Assembly: GCA_963805625.1 (NCBI GenBank)
Contig: CAWDVE010000013.1
Coordinates: 288,001-352,000, forward strand
Direction: 5' to 3'
Length of the DNA stretch: 64,000 bases
From: an uncultured Candidatus Rokubacteria bacterium
GTDB lineage: Bacteria; Methylomirabilota; Methylomirabilia; Rokubacteriales; DASRDR01
The notes below the pieces were generated by a model. That model saw only the letters and a list, made by a program, of their open reading frames with translations, ran no database searches and was not told where the DNA came from. Positions 29,630 to 49,101 of the stretch are shown one piece after another (the stretch's first letter is position 1; each line of letters begins with the position of its first letter). Both the position numbers and the translations under genes were made by a program.

Positions 29630-30838
29630 ATGCGCCGACCGAACCGGAGCGCCGCCGCGGCGGCCGTCGGGCTGGTCTCGCTCCTCGTGCTGGCCGCCAC
29701 ACCGCTCGGAGCCCAGGAGCGCCCGGAGCATCCCTTCGCGCTGACGTTCGCAAACCTGCGAGGCGGGCGCGTGTTCACCGACAAGGGGTGCGGTCTCTGT
29801 CACGCGATCCGTGGCCTCGGCGGGATGGCGGGTCCGGACTTGAGCCGCATCGAGCGCAAGGGCTTCTTCGATCTCGGCGCCGCCATGTCCAACCATCTGC
29901 GCGGGATCAACATCAGGAAGCCCCCTCTCAGCGCAGAGGACGTCACGGGTCTCATCTCGTTCCTCTTCACGCTCCAGTACCAGGACGTGCCCGGCGACCC
30001 CAAGGCCGGCGAGGCGCTCTTCGGTACCAAGGGCTGCGTCCAGTGCCACGAGGTGGGCGGCAAGGGAGGGCGACGCGGGCCCAGCCTGGACTTCCTGAAG
30101 AGCGCCAACTCGCCCGTGCTGGTGGCCGCCGCCCTCTGGAACCACGGTCCCGATATGGGCGCGAAGCTCGAGTCGAGCGGCATCCAGCGCCCGACGTTCG
30201 AAGGACAGGAGCTGGCTGACATCATCTCGTACATCACCGCCGCCGCCCGGGACGGTGGAGGCGGAGCCGAGCGCGTGGTTCCGGGAGTGCCGGAGCAAGG
30301 CCAGAAGGTCTTCGCGGCGAAGCGGTGCGTGGCCTGCCACTCGGCCGCTGGGAAGGGCGGGAAGGTCGGACCGGAGCTGGCCCGTGGCCATCACGTCAGC
30401 CTCACCCAGTTCGCAGGGCTCATGTGGAACCACGCGCCCGGGATGTGGGCCCAGATGGAGGCGCGTGGGATCCAGGTACCACGCCTCAAGGGCCAGGAGA
30501 TGGCGGACATCGTCGCCTTCCTCTACGTCTCCCAGTACTTCGACGAGGCCGGGAATCGCGACCGGGGCCGCGCGGTCGCTGAGACGAAGGGTTGTCTCGC
30601 CTGTCACGCCGCCGGCGGCCGGGGCGGCAAGATCGGGGCGGATCTGGGGACGTACCGGGCCGCTCGCTCGTCGTCCGCCCTCGTGGCCGCGCTGTGGAAT
30701 CACCCTCGGTATCTCGAAGCCCGCCGCCAGGAAGTGCCCTGGCCGTCGCTGACAGGGACGGAGCTGGCGGACTTGAGCACCTACCTCGGCAGCCTGCCGC
30801 GGCCGGCGGTTTCCAAGACAGGCCCACCCAGCAACTGA
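29630..30838 (+). CDS. tetraheme c-type cytochrome with four tandem class I-like domains
   Basis: Signal peptide; CGLCH, CVQCH, CVACH and CLACH, each followed by G(P/A)xL and (W/S)NH. Confidence 0.9.
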   Translation: MRRPNRSAAAAAVGLVSLLVLAATPLGAQERPEHPFALTFANLRGGRVFTDKGCGLCHAIRGLGGMAGPDLSRIERKGFFDLGAAMSNHLRGINIRKPPLSAEDVTGLISFLFTLQYQDVPGDPKAGEALFGTKGCVQCHEVGGKGGRRGPSLDFLKSANSPVLVAAALWNHGPDMGAKLESSGIQRPTFEGQELADIISYITAAARDGGGGAERVVPGVPEQGQKVFAAKRCVACHSAAGKGGKVGPELARGHHVSLTQFAGLMWNHAPGMWAQMEARGIQVPRLKGQEMADIVAFLYVSQYFDEAGNRDRGRAVAETKGCLACHAAGGRGGKIGADLGTYRAARSSSALVAALWNHPRYLEARRQEVPWPSLTGTELADLSTYLGSLPRPAVSKTGPPSN

Positions 30839-30840
30839 GC

Positions 30841-30880
30841 AGTCCCGCTGGGGCGGCATCGCCCCAGCGGGACTTGTTCT
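30841..30880 (+). terminator. stem-loop after cytochrome gene (terminator or RNA stabiliser)
   Basis: Perfect 15-bp stem AGTCCCGCTGGGGCG-GCAT-CGCCCCAGCGGGACT followed by TGTTCT. Confidence 0.65.
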
Positions 30881-30962: not shown

Positions 30963-30978
30963 TGGCACGTCCGTTGCT
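30963..30978 (+). promoter_or_regulatory. sigma54 -24/-12 promoter
   Basis: TGGCAC-GTCCG-TTGCT. Confidence 0.75.
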
Positions 30979-31027: not shown

Positions 31028-31168
31028 ATGGTCCGTCATTGCCCCGAACCGAAGCGGCGTCCACTGGTAGCTCACGCGCTCATCCCCATGGTAGCGCTGT
31101 CCTTGCTATTCACCGTCGCGACCTTCGTCCTGTTGAGCCTGCCAATGGGAATGCGTCACGGCATGTAA
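31028..31168 (+). CDS. small single-TM hypothetical protein (46 aa)
   Basis: GGAGG RBS; MVRHCPEPKRR followed by a hydrophobic helix; first ORF after the sigma54 site. Confidence 0.5.
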   Translation: MVRHCPEPKRRPLVAHALIPMVALSLLFTVATFVLLSLPMGMRHGM

Positions 31169-31191
31169 CGACCCGTAAGGAGAACACTCCC

Positions 31192-32220
31192 ATGAGACGA
31201 ACCTGGATCTGGACACTGGCCGCGCTCGTGCTGACGACAGGGGTCGCCCTCGGACTCCTCGTCGGGCAGCCCGAGGCCCAGCAGAAGAACGTGCTGGTCG
31301 GCAAGAAGGTCGCCGCCGGGCCGACACTAGACGGTGTCATGGACGACGTCTGGAAGACCGCCCAGCCCCTCACGGTAAAGGCCCTCGGGGGAAAGAACCT
31401 GCCGGGGGGATCGACCGAGGTGACCATGCGCTCCCTGTACACCGACGACATGGTGTACCTCTTCGTCGAGTACAAGGACGCGACCGAGAGCGTCCGCCGC
31501 GAGCCGTGGCAGAAGCAGGCCGACGGGTCGTGGCAGCAGCTGAAGGATCCGAACGACAAGGGCGGCGACAACAACCTCTACTACGAGGACAAGGTCTCGA
31601 TCTTCTGGAACATCAACTCGCCGGCCTTCGAGCAGAAGGGTTGTCTCTCGGCCTGCCACACCGGTGAAGGCAAGCCGTACGGCAACATGTACACCCCGAG
31701 CGCGGCGGAGCGCCTCGACAACTGGCACTGGAAGAGCGTGCGGACCGGGACCCTGGGCCAGGTGGACGACCAGTACGTGGACGGCACCCGGTACGACAAG
31801 GAGAAGGCCCCCGAGGCGGGTCGCAAGAGCGATCCGAAAACCGCCGGCGGCTACAACAACAACGTGAGCGACGACAAGAAGGGCCCCAAGTTCGCGCTGC
31901 CGGGGAACAAGCCGGCGCCGCCCTATTGGATCGTCGACGCCGAGAAGGAGCCCTTCGACGATTCGAAGTACAAGGCCGGGGACGAGGTGCCAGGGATCGT
32001 CGTGGCGCCCTTCACCGGCGACCGGGGGGACGTCGCAGCCAAGTCCACCTGGAAGGACGGCGTGCGCAGGCTTGAGATCGCCCGGAAGCGCGCGACCGGA
32101 AGCGATTTTGACGTGCAGTTCACCGACAAGAAGGAGTACGCTTTCGCCGTTGCGGTCTTCGACAATGTGCAGGTGCGACACGCCTACACGCCGGGCGTGC
32201 TGAAGCTCGTTCTCGAGTAG
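31192..32220 (+). CDS. ethylbenzene dehydrogenase-related (EB_dh) heme-binding periplasmic protein
   Basis: AAGGAG RBS, signal peptide, YYEDKVSIFW, CLSACH, DNWHWKSVRT, FAVAVFDN...RH. Confidence 0.8.
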   Translation: MRRTWIWTLAALVLTTGVALGLLVGQPEAQQKNVLVGKKVAAGPTLDGVMDDVWKTAQPLTVKALGGKNLPGGSTEVTMRSLYTDDMVYLFVEYKDATESVRREPWQKQADGSWQQLKDPNDKGGDNNLYYEDKVSIFWNINSPAFEQKGCLSACHTGEGKPYGNMYTPSAAERLDNWHWKSVRTGTLGQVDDQYVDGTRYDKEKAPEAGRKSDPKTAGGYNNNVSDDKKGPKFALPGNKPAPPYWIVDAEKEPFDDSKYKAGDEVPGIVVAPFTGDRGDVAAKSTWKDGVRRLEIARKRATGSDFDVQFTDKKEYAFAVAVFDNVQVRHAYTPGVLKLVLE

Positions 32221-32362: not shown

Positions 32363-33553
32363 GTGTTGGTGACGTCGCGTTTTCCCTCGTGCGTTGTCAT
32401 CCTCGTGGCGGGCTTGCTGCTCTGCCGAGTCTCGGCGGCAGCGTCCGAGCCCGTGTTCAGCTCGACGCAGGATCCGGTCGCGGGTTCCCGGATCTTCGGA
32501 GAAAAGGGCTGCGCACGCTGCCACGCGATCAACGGTGTCGGTGGTAAAGTCGGTCCGGATCTCGGGAGACTGCCCCGCGCCCGATCGTTCTACGATCTGG
32601 CCGCCGCCATGTGGAACCACCTGCCGCGCATGGCCGAACGCATGCGCCAGCTCGGGATTCCCCGCCCCCGCTTGGACGCCCGTGAAACCGGTGATCTGGT
32701 CGCGTTCCTGTACACGCTCAACTACTTCGATCCGCCCGGTAATCCCGGGGCCGGGCAGCGGCTCTTCACCGAGAAGAAGTGTGTGGTCTGCCACCAGGTA
32801 GGCGGGACCGGAGGGGTGATCGGGCCGAATCTCGACGCGCTGGGACAGTACGGGTCCCCGATCTTCGTCGCCGCGGCCATGTGGAATCACGGCCCGGGCA
32901 TGGCCGAGGCGATGCGCGCCAAGGGCGTCGCACGGCCCACGTTCAGAGATCGCGAGCTCGTCGACCTGATCGCGTACATCCGGTCCGCCGGCCCGAAAAC
33001 CGGTGACGAGCCGCTCTACGTCCTGCCGGGCCGAGCCGAGACGGGCCGACGGCTGTTCACCGAGCAGCGCTGCGCCGACTGCCACGGCCCCGCCGGAAAG
33101 GGTGGCGGGATCGGGCCGGACCTGGCGGGGCGTGGCGTGCAGCGCAGCCTCACGGAGTTCGCAACCTCCATGTGGAACAAGGCGCCGGCCATGACAGAGG
33201 CCATGCGCGCGCGGGGTATCCCCGTCCCGCAACTCTCCGCCGAGGGGATGGCCGACATCGTCGCCTACCTCTACGCGGTCGGATACTTCGCGGTCCCCGG
33301 CGATATCCAGCGAGGAGCCCGGATCGCGCGGGACAAAGGGTGCCTCCAGTGCCACACGGTCCGGGCACCGGGAGGGACGGCGCCCACCGATCTCGCGCGC
33401 GCCGCAGGGCTGGAGTCTCCGGCAGCGGTCGTCGCAGCGCTCTGGAACCACAGCTTCGCGGGGGCAGGGCGACCCGGGGCCTGGCCGGAACTCCGTCCGG
33501 CGGAGGTGGCGGACCTGGAGGCTTACCTCCGGAGTCTGGGAGGGACGCGCTAG
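32363..33553 (+). CDS. tetraheme c-type cytochrome, paralog of 29630-30838
   Basis: CARCH, CVVCH, CADCH, CLQCH with WNH/WNK motifs. Confidence 0.9.
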   Translation: MLVTSRFPSCVVILVAGLLLCRVSAAASEPVFSSTQDPVAGSRIFGEKGCARCHAINGVGGKVGPDLGRLPRARSFYDLAAAMWNHLPRMAERMRQLGIPRPRLDARETGDLVAFLYTLNYFDPPGNPGAGQRLFTEKKCVVCHQVGGTGGVIGPNLDALGQYGSPIFVAAAMWNHGPGMAEAMRAKGVARPTFRDRELVDLIAYIRSAGPKTGDEPLYVLPGRAETGRRLFTEQRCADCHGPAGKGGGIGPDLAGRGVQRSLTEFATSMWNKAPAMTEAMRARGIPVPQLSAEGMADIVAYLYAVGYFAVPGDIQRGARIARDKGCLQCHTVRAPGGTAPTDLARAAGLESPAAVVAALWNHSFAGAGRPGAWPELRPAEVADLEAYLRSLGGTR

Positions 33554-34896
33554 TGCCGCGGCGGCGGTGGCTCCCCCGGCAGATGGTGCCCTGCGCCCTC
33601 ATCTTGGCTGGTATCGGGGCCGCGTCGTTCCAGGCGGTGGCCCAGCAGCCCTCGACGGGCCCGCCGGGTGGAATCGCGCCGGTGGCAGAGAGCTGCGTCA
33701 CCTGCCACCTCGAGATCGGGGACGAGCGCCTGGCGGCGCCCGTCAAGGCGTTCCCGAAGGACATTCATGCCGCCAAGGGCTTCGGGTGCACGGCTTGCCA
33801 CGGAGGCGATCCCAAGGAAACCGGCATGGAGGCGATGGATCCCGCCAAGGGCTACATCGGCAAGCCAGGCCGACGGGAGATCCTCCAAGTCTGTGGCCGC
33901 TGTCACTCGGATGCCCGGTTCATGAAGCGCTACAATCCGAGTCTGCGCGTGGACCAGGTCTCCGAGTACTTCACCTCCGTGCACGGAAGACGGCTCCGGG
34001 AAAGCGGTGACGCCAAGGTCGCCGTCTGCACCAGCTGCCATCCCGCCCACTCGATCGCCCCCCCTTCGGATCCGCAGTCCAGCGTGCATCCGCTCCGCGT
34101 CGCAGAGACCTGTGGGCGCTGCCACGCGGACCCCGCGCACATGGCCGGCTACAAGATCCCGACCGATCAGCTGCAGAAGTACAAGGGCAGCATCCACTGG
34201 GCCACGATGTCCCAGAAGGGCGACCTCTCCGCCCCGACCTGCAACGACTGTCACGGGAACCACGGGGCCGCCCCGCCGGGCGTGTCCTGGGTCGGCAACG
34301 TGTGCGGCCAGTGCCACACGGTGATGGCGGAGCTCTTCGCCAAGAGCCCGCACGCGAAGGCCTTCACCCAGATGGGCGTGCCCGGCTGCGCCGGATGCCA
34401 CGAGAACCACGAGATCAAGGCCGCGAGCGATGCGATGCTGGGCATGGGCGACGGCGCCGTGTGCGCCGGGTGCCACGCCTCTGACGACAAGGGAGGATCG
34501 GCCGCAGTCCGGATGCGGGCGCTCATCGACGGCCTCGCGGCCGAGCATGGGCGGGCGCAGGCGATCCTGTCCCAGGCCGAGCACGCGGGGATGGAAGTGA
34601 GCCAGGCCCAGTTCGACCTCAACGGGGCGAAGGACGCGCTGGTCAAGGCGCGGGCTGCCGTCCATGCGTTCGCGCTGACCGCGGTGCAGAAGGAGGCGGA
34701 GGCCGGGGTGGCGGTGGCGACCAGGGCTCACGCCCGGGGCGTCCGAGCCCTCGAGGAGCTTCGCTTCCGCCGGGTTGGGCTGACCGTCTCCGTGGCGATC
34801 ATCGTGGCGCTGATCGCCGGCCTCGCCCTCAAGATCCGCGAACTGGATCGCCGCGCCGCGCGGCGGGAGTCGCAAGCGAAGGAGGACATGCGATGA
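33553..34896 (+). CDS. nine-heme cytochrome c with C-terminal membrane anchor
   Basis: 9 CxxCH, signal peptide, helical C-terminal region and TM VGLTVSVAIIVALIAGLAL; overlaps the Rieske start. Confidence 0.9.
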   Translation: MPRRRWLPRQMVPCALILAGIGAASFQAVAQQPSTGPPGGIAPVAESCVTCHLEIGDERLAAPVKAFPKDIHAAKGFGCTACHGGDPKETGMEAMDPAKGYIGKPGRREILQVCGRCHSDARFMKRYNPSLRVDQVSEYFTSVHGRRLRESGDAKVAVCTSCHPAHSIAPPSDPQSSVHPLRVAETCGRCHADPAHMAGYKIPTDQLQKYKGSIHWATMSQKGDLSAPTCNDCHGNHGAAPPGVSWVGNVCGQCHTVMAELFAKSPHAKAFTQMGVPGCAGCHENHEIKAASDAMLGMGDGAVCAGCHASDDKGGSAAVRMRALIDGLAAEHGRAQAILSQAEHAGMEVSQAQFDLNGAKDALVKARAAVHAFALTAVQKEAEAGVAVATRAHARGVRALEELRFRRVGLTVSVAIIVALIAGLALKIRELDRRAARRESQAKEDMR

Positions 34897-35348
34897 CGGA
34901 TGGGGTGCTGGCGGAGGAGCGGAACCGGCGGGGGTTCCTGAACTGGTTCCTGGGCACCAGCGCGGTGGGATTCGCGCTCTCCGTCCTTTATCCGCTGAGC
35001 CGCTACCTCGTTCCCCCGCCGACGGGGGAGTCCAGCGCCGTCAGCGTCACCCTGTCCATCAAGCCGGACGACGTGAAGCCGAACTCGGGGCAGATCTTCA
35101 AATTCGGGAGCCGGCCCGGCCTGCTCGTCCGGACGCCGGCCGGGGAGCTTCGGGCCTTCTCGGCCGTCTGCACCCATCTGAACTGCACCGTCCAGTACCG
35201 GCCGGACCTGAGCCACATCTGGTGCGCCTGTCACAACGGCCACTTCGACCTGAACGGCACGAACATCGCCGGGCCGCCGCCGCGTCCCCTGGAGCCGCTC
35301 GTCGTCAACGCTCGGGGAAACCAGATCGTCGTGACCAAGGGCGCCTGA
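34893..35348 (+). CDS. qcrA: Rieske 2Fe-2S subunit of Rieske/cytochrome b complex
   Basis: Tat motif RRGFL, CTHLNC, CACHNGHF, GPPPRPL. Confidence 0.93.
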   Translation: MTDGVLAEERNRRGFLNWFLGTSAVGFALSVLYPLSRYLVPPPTGESSAVSVTLSIKPDDVKPNSGQIFKFGSRPGLLVRTPAGELRAFSAVCTHLNCTVQYRPDLSHIWCACHNGHFDLNGTNIAGPPPRPLEPLVVNARGNQIVVTKGA

Positions 35349-35351: not shown

Positions 35352-36449
35352 ATGGCGGCTCCTGGGACGACGCGCGGCCGGCTCTGGCACTGGCTCGACG
35401 CGCGTGTCGGGTTGGCCGACCTCGAGAAGCTCGCGAAGAAGAAAGCGGTGCCGCTGCACCGCCACGCGTTCTGGTACTACTTCGGCGGGATGACGCTCTT
35501 CCTTTTCATGGTCCAGGTTTCGACGGGAATTCTTCTCCTCCTCTACTATCGTCCCAGTGCCGAGGAGGCCTACGAATCCATTCAGTTCCTGATGGCCGAG
35601 GTGCAGTTCGGATGGCTCGTCCGCTCGATCCACGCGTGGGCCGCAAACCTGATGATCTTCGTCCTCTTCGTGCACCTCTTCAGCGTGCTGCTCCTCAAGG
35701 CCTATCGCGCACCGCGAGAGCTGACCTGGGTATCGGGCGTCGTCCTGATGGCGCTGGCGATGGCGTTCGGCTTCACCGGCTACCTCCTCCCCTGGAACGA
35801 ACTGGCCTACTTCGCGACCAAGGTCGGGACCGAGATCACGGGCGCGGTTCCTCTGGTCGGGGCGTTCCTGCTGCGGCTGCTGCGCGGAGGAAGCGAGGTC
35901 ACCGGAGCCACGCTGACGCGCTTCTACGGGATCCACGTGGCGATTCTTCCGGCCGTCACCATGCTGCTCCTCGGCCTGCACCTCTTCCTGGTGCAGAAGC
36001 ACGGGATGAGCGTGCCCCCGAGCATCGAGCGCGAGGGAAAGCCGGCCCGCACCATGCCCTTCATGCCGAACTTCCTGCTCCGCGATCTGGTGGGGTGGCT
36101 CTCGGTCCTGGCGGTTCTGGCGGCGCTCGCCGCCTTCTTCCCTGCCGAGCTGGGCAAGAAGGCCGATCCGTTCGCGTCGGCTCCGGCCGGAATCAAGCCC
36201 GAATGGTACTTCATGTTCATGTTCCAGACGCTCAAGTACCTGCCCGCCACCATCATGAAGATCGAGGGCGAGATCGTCGGGGTGCTCGGCTTCGGACTCG
36301 GCGGGCTGTTCCTCCTTCTCATCCCGTTCCTCGATCGGCGGGCTGATCGAGGAGACCGAACCAGGTTGTTCACGTGGATCGGGCTCGCGATCATCGCGTA
36401 CATGATCGTGCTGACCTATCTGGGCTACACGGCGAGCCCCACCAAGTGA
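35352..36449 (+). CDS. qcrB: cytochrome b (b6 plus subunit IV-like in one chain)
   Basis: Four heme His ligands, [13 protein letters not shown] motif. Confidence 0.93.
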
Positions 36450-37075
36450 CCTGCCGGACGATCGTCCTGGGAACCGTGCTGGCGGGCGGCGCCGCTCTGG
36501 CACTCGTCTCCGGGGCGGGCGGCGCCTCATCGCCCGGGGACCCGACGCGGGGCCAGGCGGTCTTCGCCGCCAAGCAGTGCGGGAGCTGCCATCTTCCCGG
36601 CGCGCAGGGACCGGGTCTGGGCCCGGCCCTCGAGGTCCTGCGACGGCCGCAGGGCGCGTACGAGCTCTGCGGCCGGCTCTGGAACCACGCCCCAGCGATG
36701 CTCGCCCACCTGGCGGGACGCGGAATCGAGTGGCCGGTGATCGACGCGGCCGAGATGGAGGACCTGATGGCATATCTCGGCGCCGACCCGGCCCGAGACC
36801 CCACGCCGAACCTTCAGGTCGGTCAGGTGACGCTCCTCCGCAAAGGCTGCCTGAAATGCCACAGCCTGAGGGGCGAGGGAGCGCACCTCGCGCCCGAGTT
36901 AGCCCGCTCCCGAGTCGTCGCCGATCCCCCGGCCACATGGGCGGCGCGGATGTGGCGCCACACGCCAATGATGGCGACGAAGGCCCAGGAACTCGGTATT
37001 CTGTACCCAAGATTCGCCGCGCACGAGATGACGCATCTCATCGGCTTCCTGAGAAACATGGCGGCGTTACCCTGA
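36446..37075 (+). CDS. diheme c-type cytochrome
   Basis: GTGA overlap; CGSCH and CLKCH; LWNHAPAM and MWRHTPMM. Confidence 0.85.
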
Positions 37076-37091: not shown

Positions 37092-37460
37092 ATGTCACAG
37101 TACCGATCCAGTGGTCTGACCCTCGTCGGCGGTCTCTTGCTGGCTGGGTCGCTCGTCGTGCTGGCCGATGCCCAGGTGAAGGCCCCGCCAGACTTCACGT
37201 TCGAGCAAGGAAAGGAGAGTCCCGGGACCGTCAGCTTCAGCCACGACAAGCACAAGGAGTCCGGCGTAGACAAGTGTCAGGCCTGCCACACCAAGATCTT
37301 CAAGATGAAGAAGGGCACGTCCGGGCCCCTCGTGATGGAGAAGATGAAGGCTGGCGAGCAGTGCGGCACCTGCCACAACGCCACGGCAAAGGTGGCCGAC
37401 AAAGTCGTGTTCGGGGTCTCGGACAAGGAGAACTGTGCGAGGTGCCACAAGAAGTCATAG
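37092..37460 (+). CDS. c7-type triheme periplasmic cytochrome
   Basis: Signal peptide, VSFSHDKH, CQACH, CGTCH, CARCH. Confidence 0.9.
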   Translation: MSQYRSSGLTLVGGLLLAGSLVVLADAQVKAPPDFTFEQGKESPGTVSFSHDKHKESGVDKCQACHTKIFKMKKGTSGPLVMEKMKAGEQCGTCHNATAKVADKVVFGVSDKENCARCHKKS

Positions 37461-40826: not shown

Positions 40827-40877
40827 GACCCTGCTGGACACCGGGACGGCTCCTCGTGGGCAGTTCGTCCTCCAGTG

Positions 40878-42599
40878 CTACCCGTAGGTGAAGGGCTCGT
40901 GGTTCATCCCGTGGCAGAGGAGAAAGCACCGACCGGAGCCCGATCCGTTTGTCTCATACTCCAGGCGACCCTGGTTCTGGGAGGGCTGGACAACCGTCCG
41001 GCCGTCGGGATCGCGCAGCATGAAATTGATCAGGTGGGGGTTCCGCCGGGAGCCGTGGGCGTCGTGGCACACCGCGCAGGAGGCCTGGGCTCGGACGAGG
41101 TGGGCCTGATGAGGGAACTTTCCCGCTTGGTTGGCCAGGAACGCCGCCCGGTTGTGGCACTTGTAGCAGAGCGCATAGGCATCGGGCGCCTCGGGTGATG
41201 GATCGTTGGTGCGGAACTGGCGCTCGAGGATTGGCGCGAACGTGGAGCCGTGCGGACCCCGAGGGCGGTCCGCCCCCACGGCATCGTCGCTGTGACAATC
41301 GGAGCAGGTGACTCGGCTCGCGGCGGTGTAGCCGGCCTGGAAGCCCGAAGCGCCCGGATTCCGCCCGCGGGCGGCCACCGGGTGGAACGAAGCGTTGCCA
41401 GGATCCAGCTCGAGCCGCACGTTACGGACGTTGTCCTGGCGAACCATGCCGCGGGTCGTCTGGTCGCGAAGACCGTGGCAACGGTAGCACACCTCGGCCT
41501 CGCTGGCGGCCTCGTCGACGAGGCTCGCCGACTGCGTCACACCTGCCACCCCACGGAGCGGACCGGGCAGGCCTGGAGGCGCCACCCGCTCCCCGGTGGC
41601 CTCATGCGGGTTGTGACAGTCCGCGCAGGTTGCGTGCCGGGACATCGTCCGCGGGTCCTCGACCGGATCGTGGATCCCGTCCGTGGACGCGACGGGGTGA
41701 GCGCTCGCCTTGGCGATGGACGCCTCGACGTTCTTGCTGGCGAGGTTGCCATTGTGACAGACGAGACAGACGCCGCGCTGGGTCGAACGGGCAAGGAGTC
41801 GCGCAGCCTGCCCGGCGCTATGGGGCCAGTGGCAGTTCTCGCAGGCGTTGGTCGCCACGGTTAGATAGGGCGAGGTCGGCCAGGGGTCGGTGCCCCGGCC
41901 GTTCCACTCCTTGGTCGAGGTCGCATGACTCGACCCTGGCCAGTTCGCGAGCGTGTGGCAGGCGGTGCACAGCCTCCCGCCGCGATCGTCGATGCGGAGG
42001 AAGGCGCGGAAGCGATTCTCGTGCGGATCATGACAGGTCGTGCACTGAACCTGGCGTCGGGCGTCCAGGGCGACGCCCGGTGGAAGCCCAGTGGGATCCG
42101 CCAGCTCCCCGTGACCCGTGCTGAGGGCGCGCCCGTACTCGAACGAGATGGGGTGGTCGTCAGAGAGGTCGGTCCCCAGGTCGGCCCGCCCGCGGAGAGG
42201 GCCCAACGCCGGCCGCCCAGACCGCGGTGCGACTCGGAGGAGCCCGAGTGCGGTCGTGCCGTCATGGCACGACAGACACAGGCGGGAGGCACCGTTGGGC
42301 TGCCTCGGTTTCACCTGCAGGGTGGAGCTCCCATAGAGCCGGTAGGTTACGGGCGGCAGGGCGCGGTTCCACAGGGCGCGCGTCGTCGCGGCCCGGTGCG
42401 GGACATGGCAGAAGATACAGAGCTCCGTCGTCCCGGTGGCGCGCACCGGCCCGCGCCCAGTGGCCGACAGGTTGTGCACCGTGTCCACGATCGCGGCCCG
42501 TACCGCGCCAGGCACGAGGAAGAGAAGTGCGAGCACGATCAAAGCCGGGAGCGTCCCTCTCCTGTCCACGGCCAATGGCGAGGCCTCGCCCCTAACCAC
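40878..42599 (-). CDS. 12-heme cytochrome (11 CxxCH + CX3CH) with N-terminal OmcE-like tetraheme module
   Basis: Signal peptide; HNLS..CIFCHVPH..LWNR..CLSCHDG..LGTDLSDDHPISF..CTTCHDPH..FLR..LCTACH, then 8 more motifs. Confidence 0.88.
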   Translation of the reverse strand: MVRGEASPLAVDRRGTLPALIVLALLFLVPGAVRAAIVDTVHNLSATGRGPVRATGTTELCIFCHVPHRAATTRALWNRALPPVTYRLYGSSTLQVKPRQPNGASRLCLSCHDGTTALGLLRVAPRSGRPALGPLRGRADLGTDLSDDHPISFEYGRALSTGHGELADPTGLPPGVALDARRQVQCTTCHDPHENRFRAFLRIDDRGGRLCTACHTLANWPGSSHATSTKEWNGRGTDPWPTSPYLTVATNACENCHWPHSAGQAARLLARSTQRGVCLVCHNGNLASKNVEASIAKASAHPVASTDGIHDPVEDPRTMSRHATCADCHNPHEATGERVAPPGLPGPLRGVAGVTQSASLVDEAASEAEVCYRCHGLRDQTTRGMVRQDNVRNVRLELDPGNASFHPVAARGRNPGASGFQAGYTAASRVTCSDCHSDDAVGADRPRGPHGSTFAPILERQFRTNDPSPEAPDAYALCYKCHNRAAFLANQAGKFPHQAHLVRAQASCAVCHDAHGSRRNPHLINFMLRDPDGRTVVQPSQNQGRLEYETNGSGSGRCFLLCHGMNHEPFTYG

Positions 42600-43662
42600 C
42601 AGCCTCCTCCGGTTCGCCTGGGGTCCGCGGCAGGTACTCGAAGACCTGGATGCGGCCGTTGTAGGCATCGGCTACGTAGATGCGGTCCATCGGGTCGATG
42701 AACAGGCCTCCGGGCAGCCAGAACTGCCCACGCCCGGCCCCGGCCTCGCCAAAGGTCAGGAGGAGACTGCCCTGCCGGTCAAACACCTGGACGGCGTCGA
42801 ACAGGGCCTCGACCACGTACACGTGCCCGTCGCTATCGAGAGCCACTCCTTTGGGGCTCGCGAAGTCGCCGGCGGTGTCGCCTTGGCGGCCGAAGTAGCC
42901 GCGCAGCACGCCGTCGGGCCCGAGCGCTTGCACACGGTAGCCCAGCGCGTCCGTCACCCAGAGGGTGCCGTCGGGCGCCAGCGCCAGGTGGGTGGGGTAA
43001 TTGAACTCTCCCGGATCCGTGCCCCGCACACCATAGGCGCCCACGGGACGACCGGCACCGTCGAGCACCCAGATCTGATGGGCCGCACTGTCGGCCACGT
43101 AGAGGCGGTCACGCGCGGCGTCGTAGGCCAGGCCGGCCGGCCGGCGAAAGCGAGGATCCGCGATGACGACCAGGGGCTGTCCGTCCGCCGCGTGGACCGA
43201 CACCACGGCCAGCGCGGAGTCAGCCAGGAATACGTGACCGCTCCGGGGGCCCGCCCCCAAGGCGAGGGCCACCGGCGAGGACAGCGGGCGTCCGCCCACC
43301 TCAGTCACGCGGGTCACCCGCTTGTTCGGTGCGTCCCAGACCCACAGCGCCGGCGCCCCGGGGTCGGCCATGTAGAGAATGCCGTCACGTGCGGCGATGC
43401 CGGTCGGCCGCACCAGCCTACGGCCCTCGGCGCCGGCCACGACGCGCACCGCCCGATCCCAGAGCGATGGCTGAATGCCGAGGTCCTCGGGTGCGGCCAC
43501 GGCGGCCACCCAGCGGATGCGCGGGCGAGCCGGCGGGGCTGGCCACGCCACCGGCCCGCCTCCAGTCTCCTGCGCGGGGTCGGGCGGCCGGGCGGCTCGC
43601 TCGCAGGCGGGCGCGAGCAGGGTCACCCCCGCCAGGAGGGCCAGGACTAGGCGTCTGGACAT
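42592..43662 (-). CDS. NHL-repeat beta-propeller lipoprotein
   Basis: Lipobox-like LLAPAC; repeats such as FNYPTHLA, FASPKGVA, FWLPGGL. Confidence 0.9.
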   Translation of the reverse strand: MSRRLVLALLAGVTLLAPACERAARPPDPAQETGGGPVAWPAPPARPRIRWVAAVAAPEDLGIQPSLWDRAVRVVAGAEGRRLVRPTGIAARDGILYMADPGAPALWVWDAPNKRVTRVTEVGGRPLSSPVALALGAGPRSGHVFLADSALAVVSVHAADGQPLVVIADPRFRRPAGLAYDAARDRLYVADSAAHQIWVLDGAGRPVGAYGVRGTDPGEFNYPTHLALAPDGTLWVTDALGYRVQALGPDGVLRGYFGRQGDTAGDFASPKGVALDSDGHVYVVEALFDAVQVFDRQGSLLLTFGEAGAGRGQFWLPGGLFIDPMDRIYVADAYNGRIQVFEYLPRTPGEPEEAGG

Positions 43663-43675: not shown

Positions 43676-45724
43676 TCAGAAGCGGCGGATGACCTGGACG
43701 GTCACCCGGTACTCGCGTGTGTCGGTGTCCCCGCGCTGCCGGTCGAATAGCTCGACGGCGGGGGCCACTTCCAGCTTGCGGAAGCGCCAACGGACGCGCA
43801 CGCGAGCCTCCCAGGCCTCCTCCGTGGGGAACAAGGTGTCCTGGAGCCGCTGATAGCCGCCCCCGGCCTCGGCGATCAGATCGCCAGGCAGCAGCCAGGT
43901 GAAGAGCGCCCGGCCAGCCAGCCGCTGGCTTGTCCGGTCCTCGCTCCGGTAATATTCCACGGACTCCTCGCCAGTCAGGGTCAGCGTCACGTCCCGCGCC
44001 AGGGTGATGGTGACCAGCTCCGTTGCCAGCAGGCGGTCGTAAGCCAGCTGTGTCGAGTCGTACCGTCGGGCCTCGCCGAGAAGGCTGGCGGTCAACCAGG
44101 GCCCGTCGTGGCGCAGCTCGACGCCCACGGCACTCGTCTCCTGGTCGTCCAGGAAGCGGTCGTCGTGCCCCGAGAGGAGGTGCTCGTCGGAGCGGTCGTA
44201 GAGGGCGAACGCTCGGATCCAGCCATAGTCCACAGAGACGTCGGCACGGAACCCGACAGTTGCGAAAGTGAGGGAGGGCGAGACCTCGAACCGATAGTCG
44301 ACCGCGATGATGTCGCCAGGATTCAGGCCGGGCGTCGTCCCCGCACAGGGCAACGGCACGATCTCCGTGCGACTCCCCACCGTCCGCAGCGTGTAGTCAC
44401 GACCCTCGACCAGCGGCGTGGGTGGCCCCGGCGCCGGGAAGCACCCCAACGGGAGTGGCCCCGTAGCGACCTTCGTCACTACCACGGACGTCTCGATCAC
44501 GAACGGGTTCCGGAGGCTGATGGGGAGGGCGAACGGACTGGTCAGTGTGTGGGGTTCCTGAGGCACGAAGGTTTCCGGGCTCTCGAAGTGGTCGGCCTCG
44601 TACTCGAGGTTCCCGCCGAGACCAACCTGGAGCTGCCCGTCCCCCGGCAGGCGCTTTGTATAGACCGTGGCCAGGCGCCCGGAAACCCGGTCCCGTTCGC
44701 CACCCTCGAGCTGCTGGACGGTGCCGTCGATGGCCGCCGTCGTGCGCAGGCTCTCCCACAGCTGGTGGCGCAGGGCGGCGGCGGCCGTGTGCACTGTCTC
44801 GGCTCCGCCCACCGAGTCGGTGTAGGTGAAGAAGTAACGATAGGAGCTCTGCAGGGTCGGCGTGTGGTCGATCCGGAGGCCGGCGTCGAAGAGGGCGGTC
44901 GTGAGATCGATTCCCGAGACCCCGTCGGCGTCACCGCCGTCGCGACGGTACGCGCGGGCCCGCACATCGCCGTGCCACGTGCGCTCGGGCCCCAGGTCTA
45001 TGCCGTAGGCGACGTTGGCTTCGTGGCTCTGATAGTCCAGGTTCGGGAAGACGTGGTCCACGAGGTTGAGGAACTCGTAGCGCAACTCGAGGTCGCTATC
45101 TATCCACCCGCGACGCCCCTGATAGGTGACGAACGTCCGGTCCTCGTCGCGGGTGGCCACGAAATCGACGCCTTGCGACTCCTCGTCGACCAGCTCCTGC
45201 CGCACCGTGAGCACGGAGGGGATAGGCAACCAGCGCGCCTCCAGCGTCGCGCCGCGCGTCTCCAGCTCTAGCTGGCTTGCACCCGGACGCCCGAGCGGCA
45301 ACAGCGACTGGGAGCGGGTGGCGAAAAGCCGGAGGGCCAGTGGCTCGTCCCGCAGGAAGTCGGCGGCCAGGTCGTACCCCCACAGAGTACCGTCGCTGAA
45401 CGCAATGTCGCCTCCCCCCACCCCGGTGACCCACTCCTGGGAGAGGCCGAAAGAGCCCTCGACCGAGAGGGTGAGCAGGCGCGGGTCGCGGATGTGGATG
45501 GCCGGATTCCGGATCGTCAGGATCTCTTGGAGCAGCGCGTCCTCGAAGCGCTCGGTCGACCCCCGCCCTTGCTGGGCTCGCTCGAGGTCGTAGGTGAACA
45601 GCATCTCTAGACTCCCCTCCCAGGGGCTCGGGATGATCATCTGCGCAGCTGCCGGTCCGCCCGCGACGAGCACGACGACCACCAGCGCGACCCGCGGCAG
45701 GCCCGTCGGTCTGGGCCGCCTCAC
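43676..45724 (-). CDS. predicted outer-membrane beta-barrel (porin of a porin-cytochrome complex)
   Basis: Signal peptide, alternating hydrophobic beta-strand pattern, C-terminal YRVTVQVIRRF; located between multiheme genes. Confidence 0.7.
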   Translation of the reverse strand: MRRPRPTGLPRVALVVVVLVAGGPAAAQMIIPSPWEGSLEMLFTYDLERAQQGRGSTERFEDALLQEILTIRNPAIHIRDPRLLTLSVEGSFGLSQEWVTGVGGGDIAFSDGTLWGYDLAADFLRDEPLALRLFATRSQSLLPLGRPGASQLELETRGATLEARWLPIPSVLTVRQELVDEESQGVDFVATRDEDRTFVTYQGRRGWIDSDLELRYEFLNLVDHVFPNLDYQSHEANVAYGIDLGPERTWHGDVRARAYRRDGGDADGVSGIDLTTALFDAGLRIDHTPTLQSSYRYFFTYTDSVGGAETVHTAAAALRHQLWESLRTTAAIDGTVQQLEGGERDRVSGRLATVYTKRLPGDGQLQVGLGGNLEYEADHFESPETFVPQEPHTLTSPFALPISLRNPFVIETSVVVTKVATGPLPLGCFPAPGPPTPLVEGRDYTLRTVGSRTEIVPLPCAGTTPGLNPGDIIAVDYRFEVSPSLTFATVGFRADVSVDYGWIRAFALYDRSDEHLLSGHDDRFLDDQETSAVGVELRHDGPWLTASLLGEARRYDSTQLAYDRLLATELVTITLARDVTLTLTGEESVEYYRSEDRTSQRLAGRALFTWLLPGDLIAEAGGGYQRLQDTLFPTEEAWEARVRVRWRFRKLEVAPAVELFDRQRGDTDTREYRVTVQVIRRF

Positions 45725-46113
45725 CGGGCTACGTGACAGCGGGTGCAGGTCTCGAAGCTGATGCCCCAGGCCGTGCGGCCGTCGTGGCAGCCGCCGCACG
45801 CCTGGCCCTTGGCCATAGCATCATGCGTGAGAGGTGTCGCGGCCGTCCCGATCTCCCCGGGGTGGCAGACGTAGCAGCGATAGCGGATCCGGTGGATCCA
45901 GTGTGGGAAGGTCGCGGGTGGGGGCTCCGTGGGTCCCGCAGGCGCCCGCTTGAGCACGACGAGGCCCTCTTGGGCGGTGGCGCGGGTGGCCAAGGCGCCT
46001 GCCAGGATAGCCGGGAGAACGAGCGCAGCCCATCCGAGGCGACGCGGAAACCAGGGGGAGTCGAACGGGTGACATGGGCCGTCCCCCGGCCGACCGGCAA
46101 TCGGGACGTTCAT
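45721..46113 (-). CDS. c7-type triheme cytochrome
   Basis: ATFPHWIH, CYVCH, CGGCH, CTRCH. Confidence 0.88.
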   Translation of the reverse strand: MNVPIAGRPGDGPCHPFDSPWFPRRLGWAALVLPAILAGALATRATAQEGLVVLKRAPAGPTEPPPATFPHWIHRIRYRCYVCHPGEIGTAATPLTHDAMAKGQACGGCHDGRTAWGISFETCTRCHVAR

Positions 46114-46118
46114 GGCCC

Positions 46119-47255
46119 TTAGCCTCCGAGGCCCGGATGACACTTGACGCATGCATCGGACGGGAACGCCACGGTACCGTGGCACCGCCCGCACAGCTGG
46201 CCGCCATCGATCTGAGCCATCGAGATCGGAGTGACGCCCGCCTCCTGAGCGAACGGTGTTGGGTGACAGCTGTCACAGACCAGGAGCGCAGTGTGGCTCG
46301 CGTGGCGGAACACAACCTTGAGCTCCTCTCCCCCCTTGGGTGTTCGCTCGACGTCGAGGTCGAGGACCTCGGGCGGTGCCGCTCCCCCGTCCGGCCCGTT
46401 CTTGGGGGCCAAGAGGCCGTCGGCAAGGGCGCGAGTCCAGTCGGGCACCTCCTCGTTCACCGGGATTCGTGCCTTGGCCTCCGCCCACGTACGGGCCTGC
46501 TCGAGCGGTGCCCCGGCAGGCGGGCGCTGCCAGCTGTCACGGGCGGGAATCCGCAGGTGGCAGCGCGCGCAGTTCTCGAAGGAAAACGCGACCCTGCCGT
46601 GACACACACCGCAGGCCGGGGGCTCGGGGATGGCGGACGCCGTGGTGGCGGTGGTGCGCATCTTCTGTGACCCGCCGCGCAGGTGGCCGATCCCCGCTGA
46701 GAGCCACTCCACCGGGAAGGTACCCGGATGGCAGCTCGTGCACGCCAGCCACTGGGTGTGGATGGCGTGGGGAGCCTGGACCTCGAACAGTCGGCTCGCC
46801 CGGTCGGAGACGAGGCGGACGTCCAACTCGTAGACGGGTCTGGCGGGCGAGTCGGGTGCCAGGGCGGCCTGCGGATGGAGGAGGCCCTGGCCCACAGCCG
46901 CCTCCCAGTCAGCCCCGCCACCAGGGTGGGTCGGAAGCAGTCGGCGAGCGTCCTCCCAGGTCCGGGCCTCCTCCAGAGGCGATGTCGCCCCTGTCCGGCG
47001 GGCGTCCTGGCGACGCGCTTCGGCCGCGGCCCGCAAGTCCGCCACCTCGCGCCTGAGTTCCTCCACCTCGCGAGTCAGGTCCTGCTGGATCCGGCGGGTC
47101 GGCGGGAGGGCGCCTGGCTCGGGCACCCCGTCGAAGAAATAGGGCAGGATCCGCTGCCGGGCTTCGGGGCTGCAGGCTGCGAGCGCCGCCAGGGCCAGGC
47201 CGAAGCCCACGGCCAGGCGCGCCCCCCGCTTCGCGTTGCGGCAGCCGCCGCTCAC
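46119..47255 (-). CDS. hexaheme lipoprotein with two c7-type domains
   Basis: LAAC lipobox, FFDGVP, coiled coil, duplicated PLEEARTW/PLEQARTW module, 6 CxxCH. Confidence 0.88.
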   Translation of the reverse strand: MSGGCRNAKRGARLAVGFGLALAALAACSPEARQRILPYFFDGVPEPGALPPTRRIQQDLTREVEELRREVADLRAAAEARRQDARRTGATSPLEEARTWEDARRLLPTHPGGGADWEAAVGQGLLHPQAALAPDSPARPVYELDVRLVSDRASRLFEVQAPHAIHTQWLACTSCHPGTFPVEWLSAGIGHLRGGSQKMRTTATTASAIPEPPACGVCHGRVAFSFENCARCHLRIPARDSWQRPPAGAPLEQARTWAEAKARIPVNEEVPDWTRALADGLLAPKNGPDGGAAPPEVLDLDVERTPKGGEELKVVFRHASHTALLVCDSCHPTPFAQEAGVTPISMAQIDGGQLCGRCHGTVAFPSDACVKCHPGLGG

Positions 47256-47998
47256 TTGATGTGGCACTTCAGGCAGAGGTACTCAGTACTCACCCCGCCC
47301 AGATAGCCGAGGAGGAACTTGTCATCCACGGCCGCCCGATTGTGGGGATCGTGGCACGATGAGCACTCCATGCCCGTCCGGCCGACCACCGGGCCGTTGG
47401 CCACGCGGCCGAAGCCGTCGTCGTGGTAGAGGCGGACGCCCAACGTGGTGGGGTCGGGCTGCCAGTCGCGCAGGGCCACCTCGCGCCCGGTCCGGACGCC
47501 GTTGTAGGTATTGCGGGCCTGGCGGTAGGGGTAGGGCATGGCCACCGGGTGATTCCCCGTTAGGTTGCCGCCGGACCCGATGTTGGCCGGGTTGAGCACG
47601 CCGATGCGACCCTGAGCGAAGTTTTCCGGAGCCCCGTTCCACCACCCGACGTCGCCGACCGCAACGCTGCCGTCGTGGCAGGACAGGCACTTGATGGTCG
47701 GCCCCCCGAAGGTGTCGCTACGGAAGGTGGGGAACGGTGTGCCGGCAGTGGTGGAGGGCACGTCCCAATGAAACGTGTTCGGCGATAGCCGTTGGTTCCA
47801 CAAGAGGCGCGTCGAGCTGGCCCGGTGCGGCGTGTGGCAGAAGGTGCAGAGACCCGAGGCCGGCGACCCCTGGCCGGCGAAATCGTGCCTGGTCCCGCGG
47901 ATCCCAGTCCCGGGAGCCTGGGCGACGGCCGGCGGGACGAATACGGCGCCCGCAGCGAGCAGCACCAGAACTACGACCCGGCGGTGGCAAGCGGTCAC
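47252..47998 (-). CDS. OmcE-like tetraheme cytochrome (candidate nanowire subunit)
   Basis: IRGTRHDF..CTFCHTPH..LWN..CLSCHDG..NHPV..ECSSCHDPH..FL..LCLKCHIK, the motif order of Geobacter OmcE as recalled; 248 aa with signal peptide. Confidence 0.82.
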   Translation of the reverse strand: MTACHRRVVVLVLLAAGAVFVPPAVAQAPGTGIRGTRHDFAGQGSPASGLCTFCHTPHRASSTRLLWNQRLSPNTFHWDVPSTTAGTPFPTFRSDTFGGPTIKCLSCHDGSVAVGDVGWWNGAPENFAQGRIGVLNPANIGSGGNLTGNHPVAMPYPYRQARNTYNGVRTGREVALRDWQPDPTTLGVRLYHDDGFGRVANGPVVGRTGMECSSCHDPHNRAAVDDKFLLGYLGGVSTEYLCLKCHIK

Positions 47999-49101
47999 GG
48001 GGGCACCTCCGCGCGCACGGCCTCAACCTCAGTCTCCTCGGCGGTAGTGTTGACCAGACGGTAGACCTCCACGCGGTGGTTCATGAAGTCGGCCACGTAG
48101 ATGCGGTTCTCGCGGTCAATCGCGATGGCAGTGGGATTCTTGAGCATGCCCGGAAGCGGCCCTCGGCCGCCAAAGAACAGGAGCACTCGGCCGCGCCGAT
48201 CGAAGATCTGCACATTGCTCCACCCCGAGTCCACCACGTACACGTGCCCGAACGTGTCGAGCGCCAAGCCCTTCGGTACGTCGAACATCCCCCACGCCGT
48301 CCCACGGGCACCGATCACCCCCACTGGCCGACCCTCGGGGTCGAAGATCTGTACGCGCCCGTTGATGGTGTCGGTCACGTAGAGCCTACCGTCCCGGTCC
48401 ACGGCCGCATACGTCGGGAACAGGAACTGCCCTGGGTCGACGCCCTTGCCGCGTCCGATCACGCCCACCAGGGACCCGGTCGCGTCGAAGACCTTGACCG
48501 TGTGCTCGGTCGAGCGGCTGGAGCCCGTGTCGACGACGTAGAGTCGACCTCGGGCCCGATCGAGCGCCAGGCCCACGGGGCGCTCAAGCGTCGGGTGCCC
48601 GATCGTCGCGACACGCTGACCGGCGAGGTCGAACACCTGGACGACGCGGCGCACCTGCTCGGCGACATAGAGGCGACCGTCCGCGTCCACGGCGAGCCCC
48701 GTCGGGCGCCCCAGGGGCTCGTCGCCCCCGACGCGGCTCACGCCCCCGCGCGCGAGGTCGAAGGCAAAGACGGCGCCCTGGGCGGGGTCAGCCACGTACA
48801 GACGGGTACCGTCGTCCGTGACCGCCAGCCCGAGTGGCTCGGCCAGGCGGAGGGGTGTGGGAGATTCCCCGCCCAGGAAGTCGAGCCAGCGCCGACGCGA
48901 CCCTGGGACGTCCCCCTCCCCGATCAGGCTCCGAACGTGCTCGATGCGGGCGACCTCCGGGGGTGGCGGCCAGACCGGACGGGTCGGCGGCTCCGCCACG
49001 GGTGGAGCCGCGCACCCAGCAGCCAGGAGCCCGGCGGCTAGGATCCGGGCAGCGGTGCGCGAAAGCGCCACCCTCACCTTCGGCGGACCCGACCGGGTCA
49101 T
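47995..49101 (-). CDS. NHL-repeat beta-propeller lipoprotein
   Basis: LAAGC lipobox, VWPPPPEVARI, NHL repeats. Confidence 0.9.
   Translation of the reverse strand: MTRSGPPKVRVALSRTAARILAAGLLAAGCAAPPVAEPPTRPVWPPPPEVARIEHVRSLIGEGDVPGSRRRWLDFLGGESPTPLRLAEPLGLAVTDDGTRLYVADPAQGAVFAFDLARGGVSRVGGDEPLGRPTGLAVDADGRLYVAEQVRRVVQVFDLAGQRVATIGHPTLERPVGLALDRARGRLYVVDTGSSRSTEHTVKVFDATGSLVGVIGRGKGVDPGQFLFPTYAAVDRDGRLYVTDTINGRVQIFDPEGRPVGVIGARGTAWGMFDVPKGLALDTFGHVYVVDSGWSNVQIFDRRGRVLLFFGGRGPLPGMLKNPTAIAIDRENRIYVADFMNHRVEVYRLVNTTAEETEVEAVRAEVPP

Follow-up and report, generated by a model that had tools for sequence, protein, structure and literature searches.

A membrane cytochrome hub facing an OmcE/Uet-type kit in a Rokubacteriales genome: separable modules of a candidate extracellular electron conduit

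Introduction

We describe a 19.5-kb heme island in an uncultured Candidatus Rokubacteria bacterium (assembly GCA_963805625.1). The stretch of DNA analysed, called the window below, is 64,000 nucleotides long and represents positions 288001-352000 of contig CAWDVE010000013.1 in a 7.27-Mb genome (completeness 99.9%, contamination 6.3%); coordinates refer to the window unless a contig is named. Two convergent gene arms make up the island (29630-49101): a forward (+) arm encoding a membrane cytochrome hub around a Rieske/cytochrome b pair, and a reverse (−) arm encoding a set of outer-membrane parts of the OmcE/Uet type, called the kit. Rokubacteria are uncultured and, to our knowledge, have no established extracellular respiration. 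A preliminary description of this DNA had joined the two arms into one conduit between quinol and the outside of the cell. The reading weighed here is that a conserved hub and a mobile OmcE/Uet-type kit together carry quinol electrons outward along a predicted cytochrome filament, and we give it about an even chance.

Gene content of the heme island

The island is bordered by a hybrid histidine kinase gene on one side and by zinc-ribbon and patatin genes on the other. Sixty-two CxxCH motifs are distributed over 11 of its proteins (4, 4, 9, 2, 3, 8 and 8 in the + arm; 11, 3, 6 and 4 in the − arm), and four atypical CX3-4CH motifs occur in the EB_dh protein, the NapC-like protein, the octaheme and the undecaheme, so that heme motifs are found in 12 proteins in total, exactly as counted by hand before. 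Shuffling of the island proteins (n=18) gave a mean of 0.2 motifs and a maximum of 3 over 200 shuffles. About half of the CxxCH motifs in the genome's 27 reading frames with at least 2 motifs (62/126) lie in the island. In the 25 loci given, the atypical motif is kept in all orthologs found of the EB_dh protein (13/13), the NapC-like protein (20/20) and the octaheme (20/20), and that of the undecaheme is invariant in a 117-row alignment. Profile and motif searches of the island proteins revealed no molybdopterin subunit, NrfA-type CxxCK or oxidase subunit, which bears out, within the island, the earlier remark that a catalytic terminal reductase or Mo subunit is lacking.

The genes of the + arm follow one another as tetraheme, EB_dh, tetraheme, nonaheme, Rieske, cytochrome b, diheme, c7, NapC-like, octaheme and VKOR-thioredoxin. 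At its center the nonaheme cytochrome c (33583..34896, +; 9 CxxCH), anchored by a hydrophobic helix near its C-terminus, is the likely c-type partner of the Rieske/cytochrome b (bc) complex judging from gene order, its gene being directly upstream of the Rieske gene in every locus showing both. The Rieske 2Fe-2S protein (34893..35348, +; PF00355) has boxes I and II; box II reads CACHNGH-F/Y in 28/28 hub loci, without the serine, and the tyrosine is also missing in 17/28. A Rieske protein lacking these potential-raising residues is, we assume, of the menaquinol-type, low-potential kind. Cytochrome b (35352..36449, +; PF00033+PF00032) consists of a b6-like N-part fused to a subunit IV-like part in a 365-aa chain; its best PDB match is cytochrome b6 (E=3e-60), the four heme histidines are present, and the PEWY quinol site is found in 28/28 loci. 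In b6f-type complexes cytochrome b is split and a cysteine binds heme ci; neither feature exists here, the chain being fused and a Tyr standing at the Cys position in 28/28 loci.

The second probable quinone interface is the NapC/NrfH-like membrane-anchored cytochrome (37695..38627, +; 8 CxxCH + CxxxxCH; PF03264, 57 bits), a likely quinol dehydrogenase by family with a weak PDB match to NrfH (2J7A). In every locus showing both it is followed by its partner gene for a secreted multiheme cytochrome, here called the octaheme (38624..39967, +; 8 CxxCH + CxxxCH, assigned from heme motifs). Between the two interfaces lie a diheme class I cytochrome c (36446..37075, +; profile match, 2 CxxCH) and a periplasmic c7-type triheme cytochrome (37092..37460, +; TIGR04257, 56 bits against a cut-off of 40). 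Profile and PDB matches therefore uphold the previous assignment of Rieske/cytochrome b, NapC/NrfH-like, c7 and nonaheme proteins to this arm.

The arm begins with a secreted four-domain class I cytochrome c with 4 CxxCH (copy A, 29630..30838, +; PF00034/PF13442), a paralog of which is found in a Qrc/ACIII-like locus of the same genome. A sigma-54 (-24/-12) promoter-like site with perfect consensus (30963..30977, +) likely drives the hub operon from the next gene on; the window has 2 such perfect sites where 0.06 would be expected. In 11/23 relative loci a similar site lies between genes, on the strand of the hub and upstream of its core, with one more 8 kb upstream and with several of the misses being loci cut short upstream. 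The other perfect site of the window (21069-21083, − strand) lies upstream of an ABC-type substrate-binding gene. Then come a small hydrophobic peptide of ~46 aa (31028..31168, +), which is like a C-terminal hydrophobic stretch at the same place in the related genome G003, the EB_dh (ethylbenzene dehydrogenase gamma-like) heme protein with its CxxxCH (31192..32220, +; PF09459, 137 bits), and a second secreted four-domain class I cytochrome c (copy B, 32363..33553, +; PF00034, 4 CxxCH) with 48% identity to copy A. Directly upstream of the hub the window also encodes a 1715-aa hybrid sensor kinase (23965-29112; dCache, HAMP, four GAF, two receivers, Hpt), which did not turn up next to the hub among the called genes of the G003 and G019 loci.

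The − arm centers on an OmcE-family tetraheme cytochrome (47252..47998, −), a predicted nanowire subunit of 248 aa that matches the solved OmcE filaments 7TFS (whole length, E=8e-14) and 9YUQ over the full length; its four CxxCH and four further His, corresponding to the eight histidines of OmcE, are invariant in 31 aligned homologs. Three further multihemes accompany it, with 6, 3 and 11+1 hemes: a hexaheme lipoprotein of two c7 domains (46119..47267, −; TIGR04257 in two stretches, 88 bits; lipobox LAAC), a c7-type triheme cytochrome (45721..46194, −; TIGR04257, 57 bits) and the undecaheme treated below. The protein at 43676..45799 (−, 707 aa) is a predicted large outer-membrane beta-barrel of ~30 long strands with a small inserted beta-domain, for which the AlphaFold2 model is nearly all beta (predicted local distance difference test, pLDDT, 89). 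No Pfam or NCBIfam family matched it; its Foldseek matches are outer-membrane barrels, with a best TM-score among the matches listed of 0.41 (MtrB, 6R2Q), and this predicted barrel is in line with the outer-surface parts formerly ascribed to the arm. Two NHL beta-propellers (PF01436) complete the kit, probably lipoproteins with non-canonical lipoboxes, one (42592..43662, −) with a signal peptide ending in Cys and the other (47995..49101, −) with one ending in a near-lipobox Cys.

Altogether 79 OmcE kit loci were retrieved from many phyla. One of them (L051) has an OmcE with 75% identity and the gene order of the same-genus genome G003. L055, L057, L058, L060 and L080 each have two or three OmcE genes near a single kit, arranged in tandem or facing each other, and five-heme OmcE-like proteins occur in L087, L093, L095, L100 and L110.

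Junction between the arms

The arms converge with a gap of 51 nt (40827-40877), and the preliminary description had named a misassembly near 40830-40880 as the weak point of its proposal. Short-read contigs of three different studies cross this junction: a 587-nt contig of run X2 spans 40295-40881 with one difference, a contig of run X4 spans 40701-40906, and a 317-nt contig of run X6 joins 40708-40822 to 40877-41058 through a shorter and different spacer. The adjacency is therefore real in nature and present in more than one strain, and misassembly is ruled out. Each of the four DNA runs compared with the whole island yielded contigs on the + arm as well as the − arm. The RNA runs X18 and X20 also gave short contigs on both arms, which we rejected as expression evidence for the possibility of library DNA.

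The last gene before the junction (39990..40826, +) encodes a VKOR-thioredoxin fusion homologous over its full length to the Synechococcus VKOR-Trx (3KP9, E=3e-43) and with the same domain order as in 3KP9, 4NV2 and 4NV6. The preliminary description mentions neither this gene nor the OmcE identity of the − arm. Where the Synechococcus protein has the first Cys of the thioredoxin CxxC, an in-frame TGA (40602-40604) appears here, giving UxxC, and a selenocysteine insertion sequence (SECIS)-like hairpin with a 6-bp stem and 3-nt loop begins 20 nt past the UGA (40625..40639, +). Of 29 parsed orthologs (30 loci given), 24 have the TGA and 5 have Cys; all 6 pairs of the hairpin are kept in 24/24 TGA orthologs, as against 1-3 pairs in 5/5 Cys orthologs. 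Folded singly, the 69-nt segment is not unusual among its shuffles (z=0.16). The genome holds selA, selD (with its own UGA) and tRNA-Sec, and a selB split by a frameshift at a homopolymer run (C21:223609-225488), beside the intact selA and near tRNA-Sec, which could be either a sequencing error or a real break. From this comparison it is very likely that the UGA encodes selenocysteine. The TGA form is present in 18/35 genomes with the hub versus 12/89 others. A literature search retrieved no paper on a seleno-VKOR, and VKOR is missing from Table 1 (119 families) of PMC13188914 and, as far as the available text goes, from the body of that paper and of PMC13326102 and PMC12013277; their supplements may list it. 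Read on the opposite strand (40624-40640, −), the hairpin precedes a T-rich run and scores as a terminator-like site, which could end − arm transcripts ~240 nt past the undecaheme stop.

The 11+1-heme protein and the question of a filament

The so-called undecaheme (40878..42668, −; true start probably ~100 nt below 42668) is a tandem of three OmcE-like units. Unit 1, the first 183 mature residues, matches OmcE 7TFS with E=3e-30 and a profile probability of 100%; unit 2 (residues 184-345) aligns to all four OmcE hemes (97.6%); and the last unit matches unit 2 (95%) and weakly OmcE (26%). Among 49 undecaheme-type proteins of the 79 loci, 44 have 11 CxxCH and 1 CxxxCH and the remaining 5 have 12 CxxCH. 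A short OmcE of strict pattern occurs in 36/46 loci holding the 11+1-heme protein, the loci having been chosen by an OmcE query. An AlphaFold2 model of the whole protein (pLDDT 47.6) was not used. When units 1-2 were modelled together with OmcE, the predicted complex reached a score of 0.78, while the best of the three controls stayed at 0.00. Separate runs shared at least 96% of contacts, and partner pLDDT was 79 or more; the score mark was reached by 116/157 solved complexes and 2/215 mismatches, counts that apply roughly to this job. The predicted interface is head-to-tail, residues 1-41 including His33 meeting His120 and the heme-4 motif of OmcE. These models make the 11+1-heme protein a candidate covalent three-unit OmcE that may anchor or tip a filament. 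The anchor and tip of OmcE filaments are described as unknown, and OmcE operons as being without an apparent tip candidate, in PMC13712944.

The same protein could instead act as a trans-membrane wire inside the barrel, with OmcE as a single surface subunit and no long filament. Such an arrangement would suit the MtrB-like size of the barrel, the model of UetJ as a bar-shaped wire put forward by the uet authors, and the complex prediction, which shows one OmcE docked; we nevertheless consider it distinctly unlikely, for the tetraheme keeps all histidines of filament-forming OmcE, the gene content of the kit is that by which nanowire-forming homologs have been picked (PMC13712944), the propellers being probable lipoproteins, and several relatives have 2-3 OmcE copies beside one kit.

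Distribution of the hub and its outer-membrane partners

We surveyed 124 genomes of the order including this one, the 123 others being at least 85% complete. Hub cytochrome b is found in 35/124 genomes and 25/49 genera, with 76-83% identity in 34/123 others, and the NapC-like gene in 29/124, of which 28 have hub cytochrome b. MtrB is present in 36/124 genomes, namely 26/35 with the hub versus 10/89 without (odds ratio 23; Fisher p = 2e-11, overstated as kin are not independent). In 13/26 genomes with hub and MtrB the latter is located on the cytochrome b contig, 1.7-12.1 kb away, and in two further hub genomes on the NapC contig. A DmsE decaheme directly follows the hub on the same strand in 12 genomes, mostly with MtrB (G019, G020, G066, G068, G070, G087, G092, G093, G102, G116, G124 and G125), and the DmsE and MtrB family identity was confirmed over cut-off for G039. 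The gene order in G019 and G070 is octaheme, VKOR, DmsE and MtrB; here it is octaheme, VKOR and the OmcE kit, so that the kit comes right after VKOR in the place taken by DmsE in G019, G068 and G070. In G129 and G131 the neighbors of the hub are PCC3-like clusters, which encode a 26-heme cytochrome and a prolyl isomerase along with a large heme-free protein the size of a barrel. In G028 and G108 the fetched flanks of the hub show no conduit, and many other hub contigs end too early to tell.

Despite its completeness, the present genome has no PF11854 match and none to the MtrB or DmsE of G039, and the − arm is therefore the only candidate conduit found here. Since the hub tracks MtrB, and this genome without MtrB has the OmcE kit in that slot, the two arms likely form one conduit.

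Several side observations concern these partners. The PCC3-like cluster of G129 is on C213 (L198). That of G131 (C23, L199:928-16115) contains three related hexahemes, a propeller-like protein, an octaheme, a 728-aa heme-free protein, a prolyl isomerase, and 26-heme and 16-heme proteins. We do not claim its hexahemes as OmcS, the one searched being without a PDB match at E 0.01; it could be another filament subunit. A block of diheme, octaheme, NrfC-like and NrfD-like genes often joins the hub (G039 C110, L022:2424-5154; G090, G108, G129, G131) and is a possible third quinone interface. On another contig of the present genome (C24:105667-108900) lies a lone 1078-aa decaheme of the OmcA/MtrC family (366 bits, over cut-off), which may be a surface partner of the OmcE kit.

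How far the two arms go together

The undecaheme, taken as the marker of the kit, is present in 6/124 genomes, 4 of these with hub cytochrome b (p=0.05; excluding this genome, 3/5, p=0.13). In G003 the full kit faces, at a distance of 128 bp, only the first tetraheme and EB_dh genes, and the hub cytochrome b and NapC genes are lacking. In G039 one contig ends just past the NapC-like gene and another starts inside the partner octaheme, continuing with NrfCD-like genes, DmsE-MtrB, hemA, a kinase and the kit in facing orientation; the kit thus probably faces the hub there, the contig join being inferred.

Some of these and related observations weigh against a joint conduit. The undecaheme is absent in 31/35 hub genomes, and hub cytochrome b in 2/6 undecaheme genomes; the link in G039 spans a contig break whose ends share no sequence overlap; and in G031 and G131 hub and kit are on separate contigs. 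Beyond the order, a hub-like Rieske/cytochrome b pair lies within 10 kb (<=10 kb) in 1/79 OmcE loci. Upstream of the − arm the only sigma-54-like site has 2 mismatches, and no promoter shared with the hub was found there. The predicted docking of OmcE may also be an effect of likeness to the solved OmcE filaments.

In the tree, this − arm copy groups with G003, G131 and two Gammaproteobacteria, and the G031 copy nests within Betaproteobacteria (in G031, a 27-heme cytochrome and a membrane protein come after the undecaheme of this Betaproteobacteria-type kit; C98, L026:13001-14893). Approximately unbiased (AU) tests used a 29-row tree under LG+G4; its groups had been chosen in sight of a first 54-row quick tree, 25 rows of which were omitted. 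They rejected a single vertical origin of the − arm in the order (p=0.004 with four rows, p<1e-70 with five rows) and a sister relation between the G039 kit and the present one (p=0.004). By these sequence comparisons the − arm is polyphyletic in the order and entered it more than once. The GC content at third codon positions is alike in both arms (0.78-0.91), so that no recent transfer is visible by composition.

It follows that one conserved island is rejected, by the scarce co-occurrence of hub and undecaheme and by the G003 kit without bc and NapC genes; the arms are separable modules that have probably met twice. The earlier claim that they form one conduit is supported in part, by the real junction and by the hub tracking outer-membrane porin-cytochrome genes; a fixed island is not supported, since only 4/35 hub genomes have the undecaheme; the proposed check in related metagenome-assembled genomes found the arms partly linked in G003, probably linked in G039, and mostly apart (31/35).

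Such a pattern also invites the explanation that the arms are neighbors by insertion only, the hub feeding NrfA, nitrate reductase and ACIII-like complexes encoded elsewhere and the kit being independent. The weak co-occurrence (p=0.05-0.13), the G003 kit left intact though the bc and NapC genes were lost or never there, the polyphyly of the kit and the hub-like tetraheme and EB_dh paralogs in the Qrc/ACIII-like locus would all agree with it. What makes it improbable to us is that the hub is strongly associated and physically linked with three different outer-membrane conduits, and that the G039 kit, not sister to this one (AU p=0.004), probably faces the hub all the same, which implies a second, independent arrival. 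We retain the joint outward path of hub and kit as the preferred reading.

Comparison with known systems

The minimal omcE cluster as defined in PMC13712944, which names five phyla for it, combines OmcE with a large barrel, two multiheme cytochromes and two lipoproteins of propeller fold. As in G. sulfurreducens and D. soudanensis (7TFS, 9YUQ), the − arm has the OmcE tetraheme, two propellers, large barrel and multihemes; the two further multihemes required are matched here by heme content and compared by description. Like D. soudanensis it has no glycosylation block. It differs in its host lineage, which is outside the five phyla, in having no purHDE/ccsB-ffh context, and in the additional c7 hexaheme and triheme, 11+1-heme OmcE-repeat protein and facing Rieske/cytochrome b hub. 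The uetABCDEFGHIJ cluster of 'Ca. Tenderia electrophaga' and Gallionella (10.1101/2022.05.06.490989; PMC10734462) shares the tetraheme, undecaheme, three c7 triheme domains, barrel and two NHL proteins, matched by content only; the three c7 domains sit in two genes here, two trihemes being fused, the gene order differs, and the UetB prolyl isomerase, UetF cupredoxin and downstream ccsAB are not in or beside the − arm (the cytochrome c assembly genes of this genome are on another contig). By gene content, then, the − arm is assigned to the omcE cluster type and is not a full uet member.

Loci joining a Rieske/cytochrome b pair, multihemes and a porin are already known (PMC5877670, PMC5566968, PMC13264449), including porin-cytochrome complexes (PCCs) with petB/petC (PMC13264449). 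The Geobacter extHIJKLMNOPQS (Cbc6) locus (PMC5877670) likewise holds Rieske, cytochrome b, multihemes, porin and selenoprotein together; here, however, cytochrome b is fused, the selenoprotein is the VKOR-thioredoxin instead of a cytochrome, the barrel far exceeds ExtI in size, and the ExtP and ExtS family models remain below cut-off (219 vs 290; 52-55 vs 100). MtrCAB/MtoAB/PioAB, PCC3 and PCC4 (PMC5566968) likewise bring together a quinone module of the inner membrane, relays in the periplasm and a barrel in one neighborhood. In relatives the hub is usually paired with MtrAB, whereas no MtrB exists in this genome; PCC3 needs a >20-heme periplasmic cytochrome, whereas the largest of this genome has 11 CxxCH; and no PCC3/PCC4-type five-helix membrane protein is found among the called genes here. 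In the comparison with MtrCAB, Ext and PCC3, as suggested in the preliminary description, neither MtrB/DmsE, nor ExtP/ExtS above cut-off, nor a >20-heme cytochrome was found. A literature search returned no paper on OmcE or the hub in Rokubacteria, and word searches in the available text of PMC7005843, PMC6295460, PMC8805035 and 10.64898/2026.05.27.727921 found no description of the system in Rokubacteria.

Proposed electron path and its direction

In the preferred model, quinol would be oxidised at two sites, the Rieske/cytochrome b complex, which would move protons and serve higher-potential acceptors, and the NapC-like cytochrome, a direct route to lower-potential acceptors. The nonaheme, tetraheme, diheme, octaheme and c7 cytochromes would form the periplasmic relay, and the hexaheme lipoprotein and triheme would pass electrons on to the barrel, through which OmcE subunits may be exported or anchored with the aid of the NHL propellers; the 11+1-heme protein would cap one filament end as anchor or tip. 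The kit would occupy the slot held in relatives by MtrA-MtrB (most often) or by a PCC3-like cluster. The selenocysteine VKOR-thioredoxin would presumably, going by general VKOR biology, form disulfides in exported proteins such as Rieske and deliver the electrons to quinone. The OmcE midpoint of -145 mV (PMC13712944) is low for bc-complex output and in that respect does not suit the scheme; with OmcE near this value, we infer that the NapC-like route is the likelier feed of the filament, and the bc complex the likelier feed of higher-potential acceptors.

Outward flow is favoured. Solved OmcE filaments come from metal reducers (PMC13712944), and an Occ NHL/undecaheme cluster was expressed with MtoA-like decahemes during Mn(III) reduction (10.1101/695007). 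The genome itself has heme-copper oxidase family genes, a periplasmic dimethyl sulfoxide (DMSO)-reductase type II enzyme, Qrc/ACIII-like loci and genes like NrfAH. Neither RuBisCO nor acetyl-CoA synthase was found in it, other fixation routes not having been searched. These many terminal modules, together with the missing RuBisCO and acetyl-CoA synthase, therefore favour a flexible heterotroph adding solid acceptors.

The same wiring could also run inward, with electrons from Fe(II) minerals, reduced humics or partner cells passing through the hub to quinone, oxidases and nitrate reductase. The nearest gene content is that of the uet cluster, proposed for electron uptake (10.1101/2022.05.06.490989), the hub-side conduit in relatives is mostly of the two-gene MtrAB/MtoAB type, Rokubacterial PioAB homologs have been read as possible iron oxidation and Rokubacteria suggested as possible iron oxidisers (PMC10654088), and the heme-copper oxidase family genes and periplasmic DMSO-reductase type II enzyme could receive the electrons. 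Set against the lack of the two carbon-fixation enzymes within that search, the expression of the Occ cluster and MtoA-like decahemes in Mn(III)-reducing cultures, and the origin of the solved OmcE filaments in reducers, inward flow seems to us rather unlikely, and the outward path from quinol to filament remains preferred.

Two loci elsewhere in the genome touch on these terminal modules. A Qrc/ACIII-like locus (C10:1780368-1787965) contains pentaheme, molybdopterin-like, Fe-S and NrfD-like genes and ends in the hub tetraheme and EB_dh paralogs; the region C19:308000-322000 has a DMSO-reductase type II (nitrate reductase/nitrite oxidoreductase-like) operon, NrfA/NrfH-like genes and a heme-copper oxidase family gene.

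More broadly, we tentatively propose, with somewhat more doubt than confidence, that Rokubacteriales possess a plug-and-play respiration, in which a sigma-54-driven hub is combined with at least three kinds of conduit (MtrAB, PCC3-like and OmcE nanowire), and that the 12-heme OmcE trimer serves as filament anchor or tip across phyla. With the hub in 35/124 genomes and MtrB in 26 of those 35, the order would be a candidate participant in the redox cycling of iron and humics. Conduits that replace one another at a single slot offer a natural test of which inner-membrane modules can drive which wires, and the 11+1-heme protein is a concrete candidate for the start or end of OmcE filaments, a question left open in the available text of PMC13712944. 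The OmcE kit type itself was already known; what is new is its lineage, together with a hub whose conduits can be swapped and the hypothesis of a filament cap.

Other features of the region

Over 28500-50500 Rfam gave 0 matches, and the sigma-70 scan gave 0 promoters. No FNR or Rex site was found upstream of either arm, where one weak CRP-like site is present. There are no long flanking repeats marking an insertion element, and the repeats found are those of cytochrome and NHL domains. Terminator-like sites number 9 against 5.6 expected. Just upstream of the − arm (49463-50154) lies a broken gene remnant resembling a double zinc-ribbon/adenylate cyclase.

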